This document shows, one piece after another, positions 1 to 10,405 of a stretch of 10,900 nucleotides of DNA (the first letter of the stretch is position 1; every line of letters begins with the position of its first letter). Source of the DNA: a virus (Duplodnaviria; Heunggongvirae; Uroviricota; Caudoviricetes); IMG/VR virus record IMGVR_UViG_2579778968_000008; one strand, 5' to 3'. The translations under genes and the position numbers were made by a program. The notes beneath the pieces are model-generated. The model worked only from the letters and a program-made list of their open reading frames with translations, had not been told where the DNA came from and searched no databases.

Positions 1-1320
1 ATGAGGTTTGGGTACATTGCTTTGGGTACACCCCCTATTCAAAGTTTGGATATTCGCAAAATGCCAAAACTAACAGACATGCAGATCCGCGCATGGATTA
101 AGAGCGGAGAGCGATTCGAGGGGCGGGCAGACGGTAACGGTTTATACCTACGTTACCGTGAAGCCGACAAAACCCCCACATGGAGATTCCGCTATAAACT
201 CGCAGGGAAGTCCCGCGCCATGCTAATTGGTTCGTATAGCGAGCTATCACTATCAAAGGCCAGAGAGACAGCCAAAGAGCTATCGGCTCGCGTTGCGCTG
301 GGCTATGACGTTGCAGGAGAGAAGCAGAAGCGCAAAACCGAAGCACTGGCGAAGATGGAAGCAGAGAAGAACGCTATGCGCGTTTCAGAGCTTGCCGCTG
401 AATACTTTGAGCGTCAGATACTTCCGAGATGGAAACATCCCGATATCCTTCGCCGGAGAATTGATAAGGATATTAACCCCTGCATTGGGCATATGAAGGT
501 AGAGGACGTTAAGCCACGCCACATTGACGACATGTTGAAAGGTATCGTTGACCGAGGAGCACCAACGATAGCAACAGATGTATTACGCTGGACACGCCGT
601 ATCTTTGACTACGGGATAAAACGCCACGCTCTGGAGATAAACCCTTGTTCAGCGTTTGAAGTATCTGATGCTGGTGGTAAAGAGGTTTCCCGCGACCGTT
701 GGCTAACTCGCGATGAGCTTATCAGGCTATTCGAGGCTATGCGCACCGCAAAAGGATTCAGCCGCCAGAACGAACTGACATTTAAGCTATTGCTGGCACT
801 ATGCGTTCGTAAGATGGAGTTATGCGCCGCACGATGGGAAGAGTTTGATTTAGATGGTGCGGTATGGCATTTGCCGGAAGAACGCAGCAAAAACGGAGAC
901 CCTATTGATATACCTCTACCTTCTCCAGCCGTTGAATGGTTGAGAGAACTACACACCTTTTCATGTAATAGCGCATGGGTGCTTCCAGCCAGGAAGATGC
1001 AAAACAGAATGATCCCACATATTCAGGAAAGCACTTTGCCCGTAGCACTGGCTAAGGTTCGCGCCGAAATGCCGGATGTGCCTAATTTCACGATTCACGA
1101 CTTCCGACGCACCGCACGTACTCATTTAGCAGCGTTGGGTGTTGATCCTGTCGTGGCGGAACGATGCCTCAATCATCGCATTAAGGGCGTAGAGGGGATT
1201 TATAACCGCCATCAGTATTTTGATGAGCGTAAAGCAGCACTGGCACAGTGGGCTGATCTGCTGGTGGCACTGGAAAGCGGAAAAGACTACAACGTAACGC
1301 CTCTCAGAAGGGCGAACTAA
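1..1320 (+). CDS. int: P4-family tyrosine integrase (site-specific recombinase)
   Basis: 439-codon ORF. N-terminal segment MPKLTDMQIRAWIK...GNGLYLRYR resembles the arm-binding domain of P4-like integrases; C-terminal HDFRRT (His-x-x-Arg box) and GIYNRHQY (candidate catalytic Tyr). The true start is probably the ATG at 61 (MPKLTD...); the first 20 codons may be in-frame read-in from the flank. Integrases of this family sit next to a tRNA/tmRNA att site, which would lie upstream of the window. Confidence 0.9.
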   Translation: MRFGYIALGTPPIQSLDIRKMPKLTDMQIRAWIKSGERFEGRADGNGLYLRYREADKTPTWRFRYKLAGKSRAMLIGSYSELSLSKARETAKELSARVALGYDVAGEKQKRKTEALAKMEAEKNAMRVSELAAEYFERQILPRWKHPDILRRRIDKDINPCIGHMKVEDVKPRHIDDMLKGIVDRGAPTIATDVLRWTRRIFDYGIKRHALEINPCSAFEVSDAGGKEVSRDRWLTRDELIRLFEAMRTAKGFSRQNELTFKLLLALCVRKMELCAARWEEFDLDGAVWHLPEERSKNGDPIDIPLPSPAVEWLRELHTFSCNSAWVLPARKMQNRMIPHIQESTLPVALAKVRAEMPDVPNFTIHDFRRTARTHLAALGVDPVVAERCLNHRIKGVEGIYNRHQYFDERKAALAQWADLLVALESGKDYNVTPLRRAN

Positions 1321-1414
1321 CTGAATAGATTGAGCCTAGCCCGACGGGGCGAAAAGCGGAAAGCCTTACCGCCTGGCTCAATTCTTTTTAAGGCAAAGCG
1401 TAGAAGGTGACGCA

Positions 1415-2296
1415 ATGAGTAAGTTATTTAAGCTCAAAGAATGGCTGACGTTATCGGAAGCCTCAGAGAGGCTATCAGTATTCTTAGGTGAAAAGGTTTC
1501 TGTTGCTGATTGTTTGCAGCTGGCATTGGATAAGCACATAACCATTTCAGCAATTTTTAACGAGAGCCAGCACGCTATCCATGCGAAGGTAATCACAACG
1601 ACCCAACGTAAGCAGTTTTCTAAATTCATTATCCGGACAACAGAGGATGGGGCCTATATTGGCCTTATAGGGGAAGATCGCTTTGTCTCAAACAGTGAAT
1701 TAGATTTTGAGTATGAAGATATTGAAAGGTACGGTGATGTTTTCACGTTGCGTCATGGGATCTATGACCTGCCTATGCTGGGGGCCGAAGAATTGGATGT
1801 CATGCATCAGCTTGATTTGAACGCTGGAAGAGCGCCTCGGGAATTCTGCAATATGGAGGGGCCATTTTTGATAACTCCATATGGCTTGGTGAATATCTTA
1901 AACCAGTTCAATCCTTGGATGTTAAAGACGAATGATAGCGGCTCACCAGAGTATTACGATAAGGTAAAAAACGAGTTCGTAGATTTGAGCCATGAAGGCT
2001 ACCGCGGGTTTCTTTATCCGGCCGATGCTTTGGGCGATTTTGAGCTTGTATTCAGAAGAGAAAACATCGAAAAGTTTGAGCAAGAAAATTCTGGTGATGG
2101 CCAACAATCGCTAAAACTTGATGAGAGCCTGCATGTAATAGGTGCTCTGCTTAACGCCTTAAAAAAAGCTGAACCAGCATCTAAGCGATGGACGCAAGAG
2201 GCGCTAAAGGCGGAGATGATAGATCACGGGGTTAACCTAAGCCCTCGACATCTCGATAAATATTTCTCGGCAGCGAATAAATCTTTTAAATCATAG
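1415..2296 (+). CDS. hypothetical protein, 293 aa, AT-richer cargo gene between int and alpA
   Basis: Uninterrupted ORF with a Shine-Dalgarno-like AAGGTGA just upstream of the ATG; visibly AT-richer than the backbone genes; no motif I recognise (no Walker A, HExxH or nuclease signature). Confidence 0.6.
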   Translation: MSKLFKLKEWLTLSEASERLSVFLGEKVSVADCLQLALDKHITISAIFNESQHAIHAKVITTTQRKQFSKFIIRTTEDGAYIGLIGEDRFVSNSELDFEYEDIERYGDVFTLRHGIYDLPMLGAEELDVMHQLDLNAGRAPREFCNMEGPFLITPYGLVNILNQFNPWMLKTNDSGSPEYYDKVKNEFVDLSHEGYRGFLYPADALGDFELVFRRENIEKFEQENSGDGQQSLKLDESLHVIGALLNALKKAEPASKRWTQEALKAEMIDHGVNLSPRHLDKYFSAANKSFKS

Positions 2297-2405
2297 AGAT
2301 AATTTCGCACCGAAAACCCATTTTTCGCTGCGATGACTTAATCCCCCTCCTGAAGCATGCTTCTTGTAACGACGCAACAGCGTCTACAAAGGAGTTACGA
2401 GAAGC

Positions 2406-2609
2406 ATGGCTACAGACAACATCCCCAACACAGGTTACATCCGCCGCTTTCGCCTGGCTGAATTGCTGGGCGTTAGTGTATCCACCATCGACCGTAAAGT
2501 AAGAAACGGTTCACTACCACGTCCGGTAAAGCTGGGCGAGAAGATTACCGCCTTTGATGCGGTAGAGATTAACAACTGGCTGGCAGAACGTCGGGGAAAG
2601 GTGGCTTGA
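2406..2609 (+). CDS. alpA: AlpA-family phage transcriptional regulator (helix-turn-helix)
   Basis: 67 aa; RLAELLGVSVSTIDRKVRNGSLPRPVKLGEKITAFDAVEINNWLAER matches the AlpA/Vis fold pattern (HTH followed by the PxPVKLG...W motif); AAAGGAG RBS about 10 nt upstream; its stop overlaps the next start (TGATG). Confidence 0.85.
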   Translation: MATDNIPNTGYIRRFRLAELLGVSVSTIDRKVRNGSLPRPVKLGEKITAFDAVEINNWLAERRGKVA

Positions 2610-3052: not shown

Positions 3053-3886
3053 ATGAACATCGAAAAAAGCAGATTAATTTCTGAGGCCGCCCCTCATCTG
3101 AACGCCTATCAGGGCACAATTAACGGTAATGAATTTGCCGCAATTGTCCCGGTTATTCCTGGTCATATCGGTGGGCGTGAAACCAATATTGTTAGCGCAA
3201 AAGCGTTACACAAAGCGTTGGGCGTGGGAAAAGACTTCTCTACATGGATCACTGATCGCATCTCTGAATATGACTTCACCATTGGGCACGATTACTCAGT
3301 CCATAAAACTATTTCCCCAAATCTGGGGAAAAGCCCGAATGGCGCGGCTTACAGCAAGATTAAGCAGTCTGGCAGACCCGGCAAAGACTATCTGTTAAGT
3401 GTCGGAATGGCGAAAGAACTGGCGATGGTCGAACGCACCAAACAGGGCCGCGCTATCCGCCGTTATTTCATCCAGTGCGAGGAAGAATTACAGCGTAGCG
3501 TGCCTGAAATCGCCGCCCGCTATCGTCGCCAGCTAAAAGCCCGTATCAGTGCCGCAAACAACTTTAAGCCAATGTGCGATGCGCTGAATATGGCCCGTGC
3601 CGAGCTGGGTAAAACGACGCAGCAGCGCCACTACAGCAACGAGAGCAACATGATCGCCCGTATCGTGCTGGGTGGCATGACGGCGAAGCAGTGGGCGCAG
3701 GCAAATGGCATTACTGGCGAACCTCGCGACCATATGAACGCAGCACAGCTTGAACACCTCTCCTATCTGGAAAGCACCAATATCACGCTAATTGATATGG
3801 GCATGGAATATGAGCAGCGCAAAGGAGAACTCACCCGCCTGTCGCAACGCTGGCTCACTAAACGTCTGGAGGTAAACCATGCGTAA
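3053..3886 (+). CDS. phage antirepressor-like protein (AntA/AntB-type N-terminal domain)
   Basis: 277 aa; N-terminal segment SAKALHKALGVGKDFSTWITDRISEYDFTIGHDYSV resembles the AntA/AntB antirepressor domain signature (ARELHEFL...F..WI..RI.EY.F..G.DF); GGAGA RBS upstream. Confidence 0.7.
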   Translation: MNIEKSRLISEAAPHLNAYQGTINGNEFAAIVPVIPGHIGGRETNIVSAKALHKALGVGKDFSTWITDRISEYDFTIGHDYSVHKTISPNLGKSPNGAAYSKIKQSGRPGKDYLLSVGMAKELAMVERTKQGRAIRRYFIQCEEELQRSVPEIAARYRRQLKARISAANNFKPMCDALNMARAELGKTTQQRHYSNESNMIARIVLGGMTAKQWAQANGITGEPRDHMNAAQLEHLSYLESTNITLIDMGMEYEQRKGELTRLSQRWLTKRLEVNHA

Positions 3887-4061: not shown

Positions 4062-4540
4062 ACCTGCCGCCCAGAAAGAAGCCTTTAATCTGGCTAACCT
4101 GTTAACAAATGTTAACCCTTACAACCTTATAAAACCAAAGGTCGCGAACGGCTGTCTGTTATCAATTGTTATGGTTAATGACTTAGCAAAACTTAGCCTG
4201 AACCTCACAAAACCTGACATCCACGCACGGGGAATGACGACAAATGATGACATTTTAAACCAAGAAATAATCACCTCTAAAAAGCTGATTGTGGGGAATA
4301 AATTCCCCCTGCTGGCTGGTGGTATGAACTGGATTGCTACCGTTGTGAACCGTTCCACATCGACTTTCGCGACAAATACGCGTGCGCTGGAAGATTTATT
4401 AGGGGTCGTTACGCGAGAAGGTGAGTATTCGGAGTCCATAAAAAAGGGCTTGCCGACTATCGCCAACACGGTTTATGGTTATAGCGCACCAGCAAAATCT
4501 GGCGCCGGGCGTGGAAACCCGAACACACTAAGGGCGACAC

Positions 4541-4563
4541 AGACGCCGAAAGCGTCTTTTTTT
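4541..4563 (+). terminator. candidate intrinsic terminator or attenuator hairpin (6-bp stem AGACGC/GCGTCT, loop CGAAA, then a run of 7 T)
   Basis: Perfect inverted repeat immediately followed by TTTTTTT on the + strand; lies inside the 314-codon open frame listed in the ORF track. Confidence 0.4.
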
Positions 4564-4730
4564 GTGTCCGATCACTACGCACATCAAATCAGCGGCCTCG
4601 TCCGTACTGTATCTATGGTGGCGTTAGTGGGGCTACGTTCGCGTAGGCCGGTTTCCTTTGTGTCCGGTATTTCCACCCCTGCTAACGTCACCGCCATTTC
4701 AGAGCGTGGAAACTCAGGCGGTGACTCCTT
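4564..4730 (+). ncRNA. candidate structured leader / C4-CI-like antisense immunity RNA with an anti-Shine-Dalgarno loop
   Basis: Three hairpins in 170 nt: 4631-4649 (stem GGCTACG/CGTAGGCC with a UUCG tetraloop); 4648-4667 (CCGG stem whose loop contains TCCTTTGTGT); 4687-4725 (perfect 9-bp stem GTCACCGCC/GGCGGTGAC). The loop TCCTTTGTGT (4654-4663) is a perfect 10-nt reverse complement of ACACAAAGGA (4733-4742), which overlaps the AAGGAGG Shine-Dalgarno of the downstream Icd-like gene. A second partial copy TTTGTGTCC sits at 4561-4569. Confidence 0.35.
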
Positions 4731-9113: not shown

Positions 9114-9360
9114 TATCCCTACTGCCCTACTAAAAACGAGACGAGGCCAGACGTAGCAAGGCTTTAAACTAGGTAGGGATATATATTTTTATCCCTACTT
9201 ATCCCTACATATCCCTACCAAATAAAACAGGCAGTAAAATGCCGTTGAAGTGATTTAGTAGGGATAAGTAGGGTTATGTAGGGCAACAAAATTGAATGCC
9301 TACCAGTCTGAAAGCCTTGCCATTCGTGGCATGAGCCAGTTAGTAGGGATTGGTAGGGAT
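9114..9360 (+). repeat. iteron array, putative origin of replication (about 11 copies of the 6-8 bp core GTAGGG(AT) / (AT)CCCTAC)
   Basis: CCCTAC-orientation copies at 9118, 9125, 9193, 9203, 9213; GTAGGG-orientation copies at 9173, 9258, 9268, 9278, 9343, 9353. Three clusters have exact 10-bp phasing (TTATCCCTAC TTATCCCTAC ATATCCCTAC; GTAGGGATAA GTAGGGTTAT GTAGGGCAAC). An inverted pair flanks the AT tract ATATATATTTTT (9181-9190). Located directly 3' of the primase gene. Confidence 0.65.
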
Positions 9361-9433
9361 ATTACACCCCCAAAAAGATTCTATGGGGGGGTGAGCTTAA
9401 AACGAAACTTGTCAAAACTTGACACACAGAACG

Positions 9434-9466
9434 ATGCCACCAGCTACTGAGCGGCGGCATTTTTTT
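9434..9466 (+). terminator. candidate rho-independent terminator
   Basis: Imperfect GC-rich stem (ATGCC.CC ... GG.GGCAT) followed by a run of 7 T at 9460-9466; separates the primase/origin region from the downstream two-gene operon. Confidence 0.4.
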
Positions 9467-9485
9467 GTGCTATTTGTTTCATATT

Positions 9486-9560
9486 TTGCAATTACGGTGA
9501 TAAATATTGCTATTTGTGAAACTATAATAACTGTTGTTTTATACAGTTCTAAGGGGCGTT
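9486..9560 (+). promoter_or_regulatory. AT-rich putative promoter region for the downstream operon
   Basis: Perfect TATAAT hexamer at 9524-9529 in a very AT-rich stretch; TTGCAA at 9486-9491 is a possible but mis-spaced -35; AAGGGG RBS at 9551-9556 before the ATG at 9561. Confidence 0.3.
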
Positions 9561-9734
9561 ATGGCTATTTCAGTAAAGCCGGTATTGATAAGTGAGAAGC
9601 AAATGGAAGCGATAAAGAAAATTCAGGAGGAGCAGCGTAAAAAATCAGAGGTAGGAGTTGCGCCAACGATCCACGAAATTGCTCGGGGATTAATGGATAA
9701 GGCGCTGGCCTCACTGGCAAGCGAGGGCGCGTAA
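9561..9734 (+). CDS. small protein (57 aa), possible ribbon-helix-helix DNA-binding protein
   Basis: ATG at 9561 with AAGGGG RBS (the track's longer 9534 start would need TTG). N-terminus VKPVLISEKQMEAIKKI has the beta-strand-then-helix pattern of RHH (CopG/Arc-like) proteins; stop overlaps the start of the next gene (TAATG). Confidence 0.5.
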   Translation: MAISVKPVLISEKQMEAIKKIQEEQRKKSEVGVAPTIHEIARGLMDKALASLASEGA

Positions 9735-10405
9735 TGGGCGCCATTCACCAGATATATGAGCATGAAATGTTCTATAACTGGATAGGTGATGGTAAACGAT
9801 GTGTAGCATTCCACGAAGCGGGACATGCAGTAGCTGCATGGCTTATTCGCTTAGATATACAGGTTATCGCCGTTATGGATGAATACGGTTACGTTGCTGG
9901 CGAACATGTACATGAGGCCAAGTGTTTGGGTGTTGTTAAACACAGCATAATTCACAGCCACGATCTAGGGCGTTTGCGGGATAGTAAATCTGGTGTAGTT
10001 GGGCAGAATGGTAAAGTTATCCCTTTCATACGTTACTATGCGGATGGTATAAAGCGCGATGCAAAAAAGGCCGCTTTTGTATCCCTCGCCGGACCAGTAA
10101 GCGAAGCCCTTTACGAAAACAACGATATTTTCAACAAAAAGTATTCGCTACCTCATCGCTATGACATGGCTAACGTAAATGACATGCTCGATTTAATCTG
10201 CGCTACAGATAAGCAAATTAACAGGGAGTTAATGCTTTCTAAACTCGTTGAAAAGACCAAAGCCCTCATGGCTCAATACTGGTATGAAGTAGAAAAAATA
10301 GCGCATTTGCTTGAACGGGATAGCATTGTGAATGGTCGAAATGTTAGCTCGTTAATTGGCATCAACGTCATAGACCGGGCAACGCCATTTTTGCTGGTGG
10401 AATAA
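9734..10405 (+). CDS. standalone HExxH zinc metallopeptidase (FtsH-like HEAGHA motif, no ATPase domain)
   Basis: 223 aa; motif VAFHEAGHAVAAW at residues 24-36 closely resembles the FtsH/M41 active-site context (AYHEAGHA); no Walker A/B motifs; AT-richer than the backbone; translationally coupled to the small upstream gene. Confidence 0.65.
   Translation: MGAIHQIYEHEMFYNWIGDGKRCVAFHEAGHAVAAWLIRLDIQVIAVMDEYGYVAGEHVHEAKCLGVVKHSIIHSHDLGRLRDSKSGVVGQNGKVIPFIRYYADGIKRDAKKAAFVSLAGPVSEALYENNDIFNKKYSLPHRYDMANVNDMLDLICATDKQINRELMLSKLVEKTKALMAQYWYEVEKIAHLLERDSIVNGRNVSSLIGINVIDRATPFLLVE

Follow-up and report, generated by a model that had tools for sequence, protein, structure and literature searches.

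The stretch of DNA analysed here (the window; 10,900 nucleotides (nt), IMG/VR record IMGVR_UViG_2579778968_000008) is identical to an island of about 12.5 kb which lies between yicC and yicG in Escherichia coli strain 64.1. Its genes follow one another in the order int (integrase), a gene of unassigned name which we call X, alpA, a gene for a protein of 144 amino acids (aa), a gene for AntA, a DUF4222 gene, an Icd-like gene and small open reading frames (ORFs), then a P4-family primase gene (pri), two ORFs, a PerC gene and two more genes. The integrase gene is annotated in NZ_CP059917 directly after yicC, and its RefSeq start corresponds to window position 61. The subject of this study is X, which occupies the slot between int and alpA, together with a short paired element that follows its stop codon (Table 1).

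The element is a satellite of the phage-inducible chromosomal island (PICI) type: int, alpA and pri are co-directional, a Bro-N/AntA zone is present, and the island is free of phage structural and lysis genes. This gene order, taken with the C4 and isrK RNAs found at 4486-4698, matches the published layout of Gram-negative PICIs, which comprises an integration zone, a Bro-N/immunity-RNA zone, a replication zone and a late zone (PMC10111431). The two RNAs, isrK (71 bits, 4486-4562) and the C4 antisense RNA (81 bits, 4611-4698), lie within the gene annotated as Icd-like and make up an immunity-RNA module of the P4/P1 type.

Table 1. Features in and around the int-alpA interval, in window coordinates (amino acid limits are those of the X protein).
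Feature	Position	Strand	Basis and remarks
Tyrosine integrase	1..1320	+	Pfam Arm-DNA-bind_3 4e-19, Phage_integrase 7e-17, Phage_int_M 1e-16
int-alpA RNA motif, Rfam RF02996	1329..1394	+	cmscan 69.5 bits (gathering 35.8), E 4e-14, full-length match
Shine-Dalgarno-like GAAGGTGA of X	1403..1410	+	sequence read; part of conserved backbone
Slot gene X, 293 aa	1415..2296	+	ATG-initiated ORF; family; AlphaFold2 model
N-terminal MerR/Xis/AlpA-type winged helix-turn-helix, aa 1-48	1415..1558	+	near-invariant across family
Central beta-rich domain, aa 52-214	1568..2056	+	GIYDLPMxGAExLDV and YPADGL blocks; no solved relative
C-terminal three-helix domain, aa 235-292	2117..2290	+	AlphaFold2 helices 235-250, 261-270, 277-292
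X-linked paired sites, putative tandem operator	2303..2336	.	TTTCGCACCGAAA 2303-2315 and TTTCGCTGCGA 2323-2333
alpA leader hairpin	2356..2408	+	15-nt arms 2356-2370 and 2394-2408
alpA, 67 aa	2406..2609	+	Pfam Phage_AlpA 1.9e-8; proposed target downstream of X cassette

X had been described, in a sequence-only reading of the window, as an orphan gene of 293 codons between int and alpA, AT-richer than the backbone and devoid of any recognised motif. The gene is real: the ORF starts with ATG, and its start codon is fixed by the N-terminus MSKLFKLKEW, which is kept throughout a large family. The difference in composition is also there (G+C content: X 0.432, int 0.506, alpA 0.525, the window as a whole 0.509), and the missing motif was borne out by the searches. 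No match above threshold was found in Pfam, PADLOC, PHROGs or NCBIfam, nor among the sequences of the PDB, whether we used the single protein or a profile; a scan of X with PADLOC-DB v2 gave nothing at E<=1, and no effector domain (nuclease, TIR, SIR2, protease, membrane pore etc.) came out of Pfam or NCBIfam. A Pfam scan of 82 aligned members of the family likewise gave nothing above threshold, and PF05930 (Phage_AlpA) and PF12728 (HTH_17) were matched neither by X nor by any of the 82 members. RefSeq calls the product "hypothetical protein" (WP_019841533.1), and no description of the X family was found in the literature that we searched on DUF6387, on int-alpA and on repressors of Gram-negative satellites. 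YfjH of E. coli K-12, which lies in the int-alpA interval of CP4-57, was considered as a counterpart of X and rejected (hhalign probability 0.3%; yfjH is on the opposite strand).

The word "orphan" holds for the annotation libraries and is wrong in one sense only, namely that X belongs to a large unnamed family. A word-indexed search gave 96 homologous 90%-clusters at E<=1e-3, all annotated "hypothetical" and without a Pfam domain, while an exhaustive profile search gave 3,024 representatives at 50% identity for the same threshold, 953 of them at E<=1e-30. The members from Enterobacterales are 38-91% identical to X and 262-298 aa long; distant relatives of about 319 aa are found in Colwellia, Thalassotalea, Pseudoalteromonas and Sulfuricella, and the family is spread over the Proteobacteria, with loci from the alpha-, beta-, gamma- and deltaproteobacteria. 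Their alignment shows a near-invariant N-terminus (MSKLFKLKEWLTLEE...ADxLxLALDGHLxxS), the two blocks of Table 1 in its centre and a more variable C-terminus. In IMG/VR we found X at seven loci, five of which are contigs of 14-21 kb where X lies 1.1-1.4 kb from the contig end. A domain family with about 3,000 cluster representatives is therefore missing from the searched Pfam, NCBIfam, PHROGs and PADLOC libraries.

We modelled X with AlphaFold2 on the 82-sequence alignment (pLDDT, the predicted local distance difference test, 90.1). The search for remote homologues that the sequence-only reading had proposed succeeded for one end of the protein: in the model the N-terminal 50 aa superpose on the winged helices of Xis, AlpA and MerR, while Foldseek with the whole model gave nothing at E<0.01 against the PDB. 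X is thus predicted to possess a helix-turn-helix (HTH) DNA-binding domain, as expected of the functional class of Stl and Rpr, the master repressors of Gram-positive PICIs, including the Staphylococcus aureus pathogenicity islands (SaPIs). The central domain has weak SH3-like structural matches only and is a candidate for a sensor or an oligomerisation domain. It is followed by a linker of low confidence (residues ~226-234) and by the C-terminal domain, the variable part of the family, which may be a second HTH (HTH_62 is matched below threshold in 4 of the 82 members). No recognisable enzymatic domain was found in the model by sequence libraries or by structure searches.

We surveyed 5,426 complete E. 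coli genomes; 13 of them contain the X allele of the window, and 946 contain related backbones. A second X allele, whose protein is 60% identical, accounts for about 21 partial DNA matches at ~73% identity, one of which was inspected (locus L002; loci are numbered with L). The sequence-only reading had expected the slot to be variable, and it is: E. coli islands sharing int (82-92% nucleotide identity) and the alpA-antA segment (87-92%) each carry a different single co-oriented gene in its place, coding for 216, 239, 293 (DUF6387), 307, 316 or 321 aa, so that X is not invariant at this position. These alternative slot genes are all AT-rich (G+C content 0.36-0.42). Their products have no full-length similarity to X or to each other by BLASTP or hidden Markov models (HMMs), though short terminal stretches are common to those of L084, L086 and L087. 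PADLOC matched only one of six, that of L084, and weakly (PDC-S31, E 0.002). When X was compared with the alternative E. coli slot proteins as single sequences by hhalign, no remote homology appeared; comparison of profiles gave a match at the N-terminus only, below significance.

The limits of the exchanged segment can be read from these islands. Homology with the window ends at the slot ATG (1418) in L084 and L087, where different slot genes begin at one common ATG position, and inside the end of int in L085 (1301) and L086 (1308); it resumes 65-125 bp past the stop codon of X. One limit of the X cassette is thus its ATG at 1415, and the other is found 65-125 bp beyond its stop codon. These break-points enclose the paired sites, which are hence swapped together with the gene. 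Between the window and L002, the integrase is 96.9% identical, AntA 92%, the 144-aa protein 87%, AlpA 76% and X 60%. Fast point evolution of X was rejected as an explanation, since the synonymous divergence of X is saturated in this comparison while flanking genes remain 87-97% identical; this points to old alleles that have been exchanged by recombination. In the prototype EcCICFT073, whose inducibility is established by experiment, int and alpA are separated by a 365-bp gap without an annotated gene, so the basic PICI cycle can do without a slot gene.

A sample anchored on alpA rather than on X gave 33 evaluable IMG/VR islands, some of them duplicates, so that not all are independent. All 33 have exactly one co-oriented slot gene, of ~158-326 aa (longest-ORF calls reach 368 aa); no empty slot and no classical defence system in the slot was found in this sample. 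The occupants belong to the L084/L086/L087 superfamily in 19 islands, to the L085 type in 5 and to X in 3; the others are of a 233-aa type (3), of a 213-218-aa type (2) and of one other kind (1). The two winged-helix families account for 22 of the 33.

Module shuffling can be seen within the L086 slot family (P0240-P0294). For many proteins of ~318 aa, what they have in common with the L086-type protein is limited to the last ~75 aa (70-80% identity) or to about 38% of that protein; the slot proteins of L084 and L086 have a common C-terminus, those of L086 and L087 a common N-terminus. A similar motif is found at or near the C-terminus of X and of the L084, L086 and L087 proteins (AANKSFKS / AANGKG / AANGKVDS / KANNKGEE).

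Directly after the stop codon of X comes the paired element. In the window its two sites are 20 bp apart and are followed by a conserved TGAC; the pattern is unique in the window, where 0.01 occurrence is expected by chance. An element of ~36 bp is near-invariant in E. coli, Xenorhabdus, Photorhabdus, Yersinia, Erwinia and Pectobacterium, though the X proteins are 42-60% identical and the flanks fully divergent. In other lineages, lineage-specific pairs stand at the same position, for example CCGAATTCGG, CCGCATGCGG, CGCAATTGCG or GGCAGTTGCC, each present twice. We collected 80 loci, one genome per species, and looked for pairs of 10-mers matching at 9 positions or more out of 10 within 70 nt of the X stop, using shuffled sequences and two control regions for comparison. 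Of 54 loci, 41 have such a pair; the rate is 3.3% for the shuffles, and the two control regions gave 2/54 and 3/54. Two separate perfect palindromes with centres 19-23 bp apart are found in 26/54 loci (5.9% of shuffles, 0/54 in controls). The most frequent spacing of the 10-mers is 21 bp (26 loci), most of the palindromes have a centre-to-centre distance of exactly 21.0 bp, and the first copy begins, as a rule, 0-12 nt past the stop of X. In 16 loci, the copies agree better as direct than as inverted repeats. A second operator elsewhere in the islands was also looked for: extra copies occur at the chance rate and at no consistent position.

The AlpA of the window is 91-94% identical to those of L084, L086 and L087 (its HTH stretch is identical in L084); in these three loci another gene fills the slot and the TTCG-N3-CGAA pair is missing. 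L002 and L085 share an AlpA allele 76% identical to that of the window; L002 has X and the pair, L085 has neither. This two-by-two comparison shows that the paired sites are linked to X and not to the AlpA allele, and sites of AlpA auto-regulation were rejected on this ground. Two further candidates were rejected: arm sites of the integrase, as the pair is ~2.3 kb from the yicC-side junction, and cassette sites resembling integron attC, as the integrase is of the P4 type with an arm-binding domain and many of the pairs are direct repeats.

It can also be supposed that the palindromes are not bound by X at all and act as RNA, as a stabilising 3' hairpin, an insulator or an attenuator coupled to the end of X translation, the function of X being then unrelated to alpA. 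The two copies can indeed pair, at -11.4 kcal/mol in the window (z -4.2) and -19.1 in L002 (z -6.4); a ribosome positioned on the stop codon would cover the start of the element (offsets 0-12 nt); and what is found downstream of other slot genes is mostly ordinary hairpins, some with T-runs, and in a few cases repeats spaced by ~21 bp. Four features argue for DNA bound by a protein rather than for a simple RNA hairpin: in the 26 loci mentioned, each of the two copies forms a palindrome by itself, something that the arm of a hairpin does not require; from centre to centre there is a fixed distance of 21 bp, two helical turns; the match is better as a direct repeat in 16 loci; and the central base of each enteric unit is paired between the arms in only 3 of 10 sequences. 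There is, besides, no U-tract after the second copy. We therefore regard a purely RNA role as quite improbable.

In some loci of the L086 superfamily (L125, L135, L105, L087/L103), repeats ~21-22 bp apart were noticed in the first ~60 nt after the stop of the slot gene (GAAATCCGGA/GAAATCCCGA; TAGTAAA...TAGTAAA; CGGAATT/AATTCCG). These are hints that a logic of "regulator plus site" cassettes may extend beyond the X family.

Two RNA elements flank the X cassette. The one upstream, the int-alpA RNA motif (RF02996), is multi-stemmed, ends with a U-run and folds at -30.3 kcal/mol. It belongs to the backbone, which is conserved up to 1418 in islands with other slot genes, and the ribosome binding site and ATG of X come within ~20 nt after it. 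Hence either X is expressed by read-through, or the motif is a leader for any occupant of the slot. RF02996 is a described element of the int-alpA interval, here directly upstream of X; being shared with other slot genes, it is neither the X cassette nor the paired-site element. The one downstream is the leader hairpin of alpA, whose 3' arm covers the stretch from the Shine-Dalgarno sequence to the ATG (2406), the ATG included. The region 2346-2420 folds at -33.2 kcal/mol (z -6.5), and the loop holds a CAACAAC/CAACAGC-like motif and a Shine-Dalgarno sequence. A GTAAC/GTTAC core is invariant in related islands, which display one compensatory pair. Stems covering the start codon, with arms that co-vary (CATGTCGC/GCGACATG, GCATGTT/AACATGC, CATGTCGTACC/GGTACGACATG), were seen in alpha-, beta- and gammaproteobacterial loci (L012, L016, L018, L022, L038, L046, L050, L052, L071, L040 and L066), and stems of at least 8 bp in 14 of 46 loci against 5% of shuffles. 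The hairpin has no match in Rfam and may be an undescribed element of translational control of alpA.

The association of X with alpA is not limited to enteric islands and extends over the alpha-, beta-, gamma- and deltaproteobacteria. Searched with locally iterated HMMs, 51 of the 69 evaluable loci show a small AlpA-like HTH gene as the immediate 3' neighbour of X, co-oriented with it and in most cases at a distance of 0-150 bp, and an excisionase-type HTH_17 ORF follows X in five more (in L052 only at E 6e-4), which brings the count to 56/69. A gene between X and alpA is rare, most such cases being those of a truncated X. In 46/70 loci X is preceded on its own strand by an integrase gene at no more than 1.5 kb, and only 5 bp separate int from X in Thalassotalea; the annotated neighbourhoods of Thalassotalea and Yersinia confirm the order Int-X-AlpA.

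Many of the loci without an integrase immediately before X, all in non-enteric islands, have in its place an ORF that can be recognised as a defence gene or is likely to be one (at ~0.1-4 kb). We found restriction-modification genes of Type ISP in L022 and L026 and of the MmeI type in L046, an OLD nuclease in L041, an HSDR_N + AAA + CSD gene in L038, a DUF499 + HEPN gene in L079, an SNF2 helicase in L054, HsdM in L074 and an N6/N4 methylase in L050. An integrase is present further upstream on the same strand in L022, L026, L038 and L046, which gives the order int, cargo, X, alpA, and in these four loci the interval between int and X marks a real cargo hotspot. In L041, L079, L054, L074 and L050 no integrase was found within the upstream flank that was fetched.

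These neighbourhoods bear on the proposal of the sequence-only reading that X, sitting in an integrase-proximal anti-phage hotspot, is a single-protein defence or abortive-infection factor. According to PMC11364771, which cites Fillol-Salom et al. 2022, PICIs do carry immune systems at their 5' or 3' ends, and to this extent the hotspot was rightly named; the defence genes that we saw are upstream of X, and none is in the slot in the 33 alpA-anchored islands. In its best form, the proposal would make X an anti-phage or helper-interference cargo, a single non-enzymatic protein binding phage DNA or a phage protein, with the paired sites serving autoregulation or self-immunity. The variability of the slot among near-identical backbones, the AT-richness of all its occupants, the dispensability of a slot gene in EcCICFT073 and the restriction-modification, OLD or HEPN genes adjoining X in other taxa all speak in its favour. 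There is also a precedent in Stl2 of SaPI2, described in PMC11846896 as both repressor and immunity factor, which makes a defensive role compatible with a regulatory one. The defence-system scan that had been suggested gave no PADLOC match for X, and X has no effector domain. Defence genes are usually found in many contexts; X was matched in none of 50,697 phage genomes and in a single one of 72,556 plasmids, a replicon of 1.9 Mb. It holds a fixed place just in front of alpA, with recognisable defence genes upstream of it and no recognisable defence system in the slot of the alpA-anchored sample, and it comes with cognate palindromes. The claim of a defence or abortive-infection factor is thus left unsupported, and we consider a purely cargo role unlikely, though still a serious competitor.

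X could, alternatively, be an accessory recombination factor, of the directionality or architectural kind, acting with Int and AlpA in excision and integration. Its N-terminal domain is closest to excisionases (Pukovnik Xis, RdfS, Tn916 Xis, GIsul2 Xis), and X is wedged between int and alpA, with a very tight int-X spacing in many taxa. A factor of this kind fits poorly with 97%-identical Int alleles paired with X alleles only 60% identical, and with ~90%-identical int and alpA paired with unrelated slot proteins; the sites, at the distance from the yicC-side junction given above, are too far for arm sites, and EcCICFT073 excises without a slot gene. This makes a recombination role very unlikely in our opinion.

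Whether Gram-negative PICIs possess a global repressor has been described as unclear; the induction of alpA depends on the helper phage, and in EcCICFT073 this helper-dependent expression of alpA starts the cycle, which AlpA activates (PMC6092414). No later answer to the question of the repressor was found in the literature searched. We tentatively favour, with somewhat less than even confidence, the reading in which X is a repressor or sensor provided with its own operator, the whole forming a cassette that gates alpA, by analogy with Stl of the SaPIs. In its favour are the N-terminal fold and the lack of enzymatic or effector domains, the synteny with alpA, the paired sites with their statistics, their near-invariance across enteric genera and their linkage to X, the limits of the cassette, the defence genes upstream of X, the single gene of restricted size in the slot of the alpA-anchored sample, and the scarcity of X in phages and plasmids. 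X would be a sequence-specific DNA-binding protein travelling with its own cis element, located upstream of the alpA leader and made of two short palindromes about two helical turns apart, starting ~0-12 nt from the X stop. It would be translated from an int-side transcript by means of translation signals supplied by the backbone, and would bind both sites, probably in the form of two dimers that lie on the same face of the helix. This binding would block or tune transcription into alpA, the gene of the activator/excisionase, and so keep the island quiescent until the central beta-rich domain receives an inducing signal, for example a helper-phage protein. It can be expected that a swap of the cassette would change the regulatory specificity. 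X would then be a functional Gram-negative analogue of Stl/Rpr. All these functional claims are computational: we infer that X binds the sites, that it represses alpA rather than activating it, and that its central domain is the sensor.

Several observations weigh against this reading. EcCICFT073 can be induced by phage although its slot is empty, so that not every such island has a regulator like X; X points in the same direction as alpA, whereas stl and str diverge; and the slot genes are AT-rich and exchangeable, as cargo would be. The N-terminal winged helix hardly varies between site types while the sequence of the sites does. Specificity must then come from elsewhere in the protein, which is an extra assumption; if the sites are read by X, the probable seat of specificity is the variable C-terminal domain. 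A search around the sites of the window gave no sigma-70-like promoter, and in other loci the positions of promoters relative to the sites are only weakly clustered. Finally, as calculated above for the window and for L002, the two copies can pair as an RNA hairpin.

A wider form of the repressor-operator reading, which we hold to be doubtful, is that X and its winged-helix analogues in the slot supply the repressor/sensor layer which has been missing from the picture of many Gram-negative satellites of the PICI type and of related genomic islands. Each would form, with its operator, an exchangeable cassette placed after the int-alpA RNA motif and before the leader of alpA, and would hold alpA off until the variable central domain senses a specific phage or host signal, so that swaps re-tune the inducing helper; the same protein could also confer immunity to phages carrying its ligand, as SaPI2 Stl2 does. 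The X family with its cognate and statistically strong DNA element is a testable candidate for a control layer in a subset of Gram-negative PICIs, and in this island lineage, if not more widely, the integrase-proximal slot would harbour allelic regulators rather than arbitrary cargo. If X turned out to act in defence instead, that would be a novelty too: a defence protein of a non-enzymatic kind that brings a DNA element of its own.

Some observations concern other parts of the island and its surroundings. A second AT-rich patch (9200-10405, G+C content 0.40-0.45), downstream of the primase gene, contains an ORF of 66 aa (9534-9734) and, adjoining it (9734-10405), one for a 223-aa protein with an HEAGH (HExxH) motif, whose matches to Peptidase_M41/FtsH are below threshold and which has no PADLOC or PHROG match. 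This patch falls in the pri-adjacent accessory region of PICIs, which is reported in PMC11364771 to hold immune genes such as Tai. The C-terminal half (aa 165-267) of the AntA-domain protein (3053-3886) matches the PADLOC candidate model PDC-S22 (E 6e-12). In a single strain, a gene of the reverse-transcriptase family, possibly a retron, is inserted between slmA and pyrE (L002 1866-2825, NZ_CP062855), ~3 kb upstream of the island at the yicC site.

It remains to compare X with known systems. The immune hotspot at the 5' end of PICIs resembles the X slot in that the latter is next to int, AT-rich and variable in content among related islands; X differs in matching no known defence model, the slot holds a single gene of restricted size and type in the alpA-anchored sample, and in distant taxa defence genes stand upstream of X instead of replacing it. 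Regulators of the WYL type in defence systems combine a winged helix-turn-helix, a beta-rich domain and a C-terminal domain. X, which has this layout in ~290 aa and is similar in size, could thus be a transcription factor like BrxR or CapW, controlling the neighbouring defence cargo and not alpA. Like them, X is found near defence genes, with restriction-modification and OLD genes upstream of it in at least nine loci, and palindromic DNA sites are common to both. Neither a WYL domain nor the C-terminal WCX domain was found in X by sequence or by structure, and the sites of X face alpA and not the defence genes, so that we give this possibility hardly any weight.

The winged-helix proteins of the AlpA/Xis/MerR kind (Pukovnik Xis, 4j2n; the GIsul2 excisionase, 8c3t; BldC, 6amk) are related to X by the N-terminal fold. 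The AlpA/HTH_17 family has a size of ~60-80 aa, whereas X has 293 aa with two further domains and no Pfam HTH_17, Phage_AlpA or MerR match in its sequence; moreover its island already encodes a separate AlpA. X is thus outside the tested defence families, AlpA/HTH_17 (by sequence), the WYL regulators and YfjH. Judging from the sequences and the model, its fold, the architecture of its cis element and its cassette-like exchange appear to be new, while it would be of a known kind, the regulatory DNA-binding proteins of mobile elements.

The closest parallel is with Stl of the SaPIs and Rpr of Gram-positive PICIs. There is no relationship of sequence or fold with X. X is transcribed in the same direction as alpA, and so has neither divergent transcription nor an operator in a shared spacer; its candidate sites are 3' of the regulator gene, and the putative target is one activator gene, alpA, instead of a whole operon. 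The likeness is one of place and organisation. Both regulators lie between int and the genes of excision or activation, and combine an N-terminal HTH with a remainder that diverges; from one related island to another, allelic variants without mutual relationship take their place; and candidate operator DNA lies between the regulator and the genes that it would control. In SaPIs, accessory genes are found between int and stl (PMC6092414), and accessory genes are likewise on the int side of X. The topology of the SaPIs (int, accessory genes, Stl, operator, excision/replication genes) is in this way mirrored.

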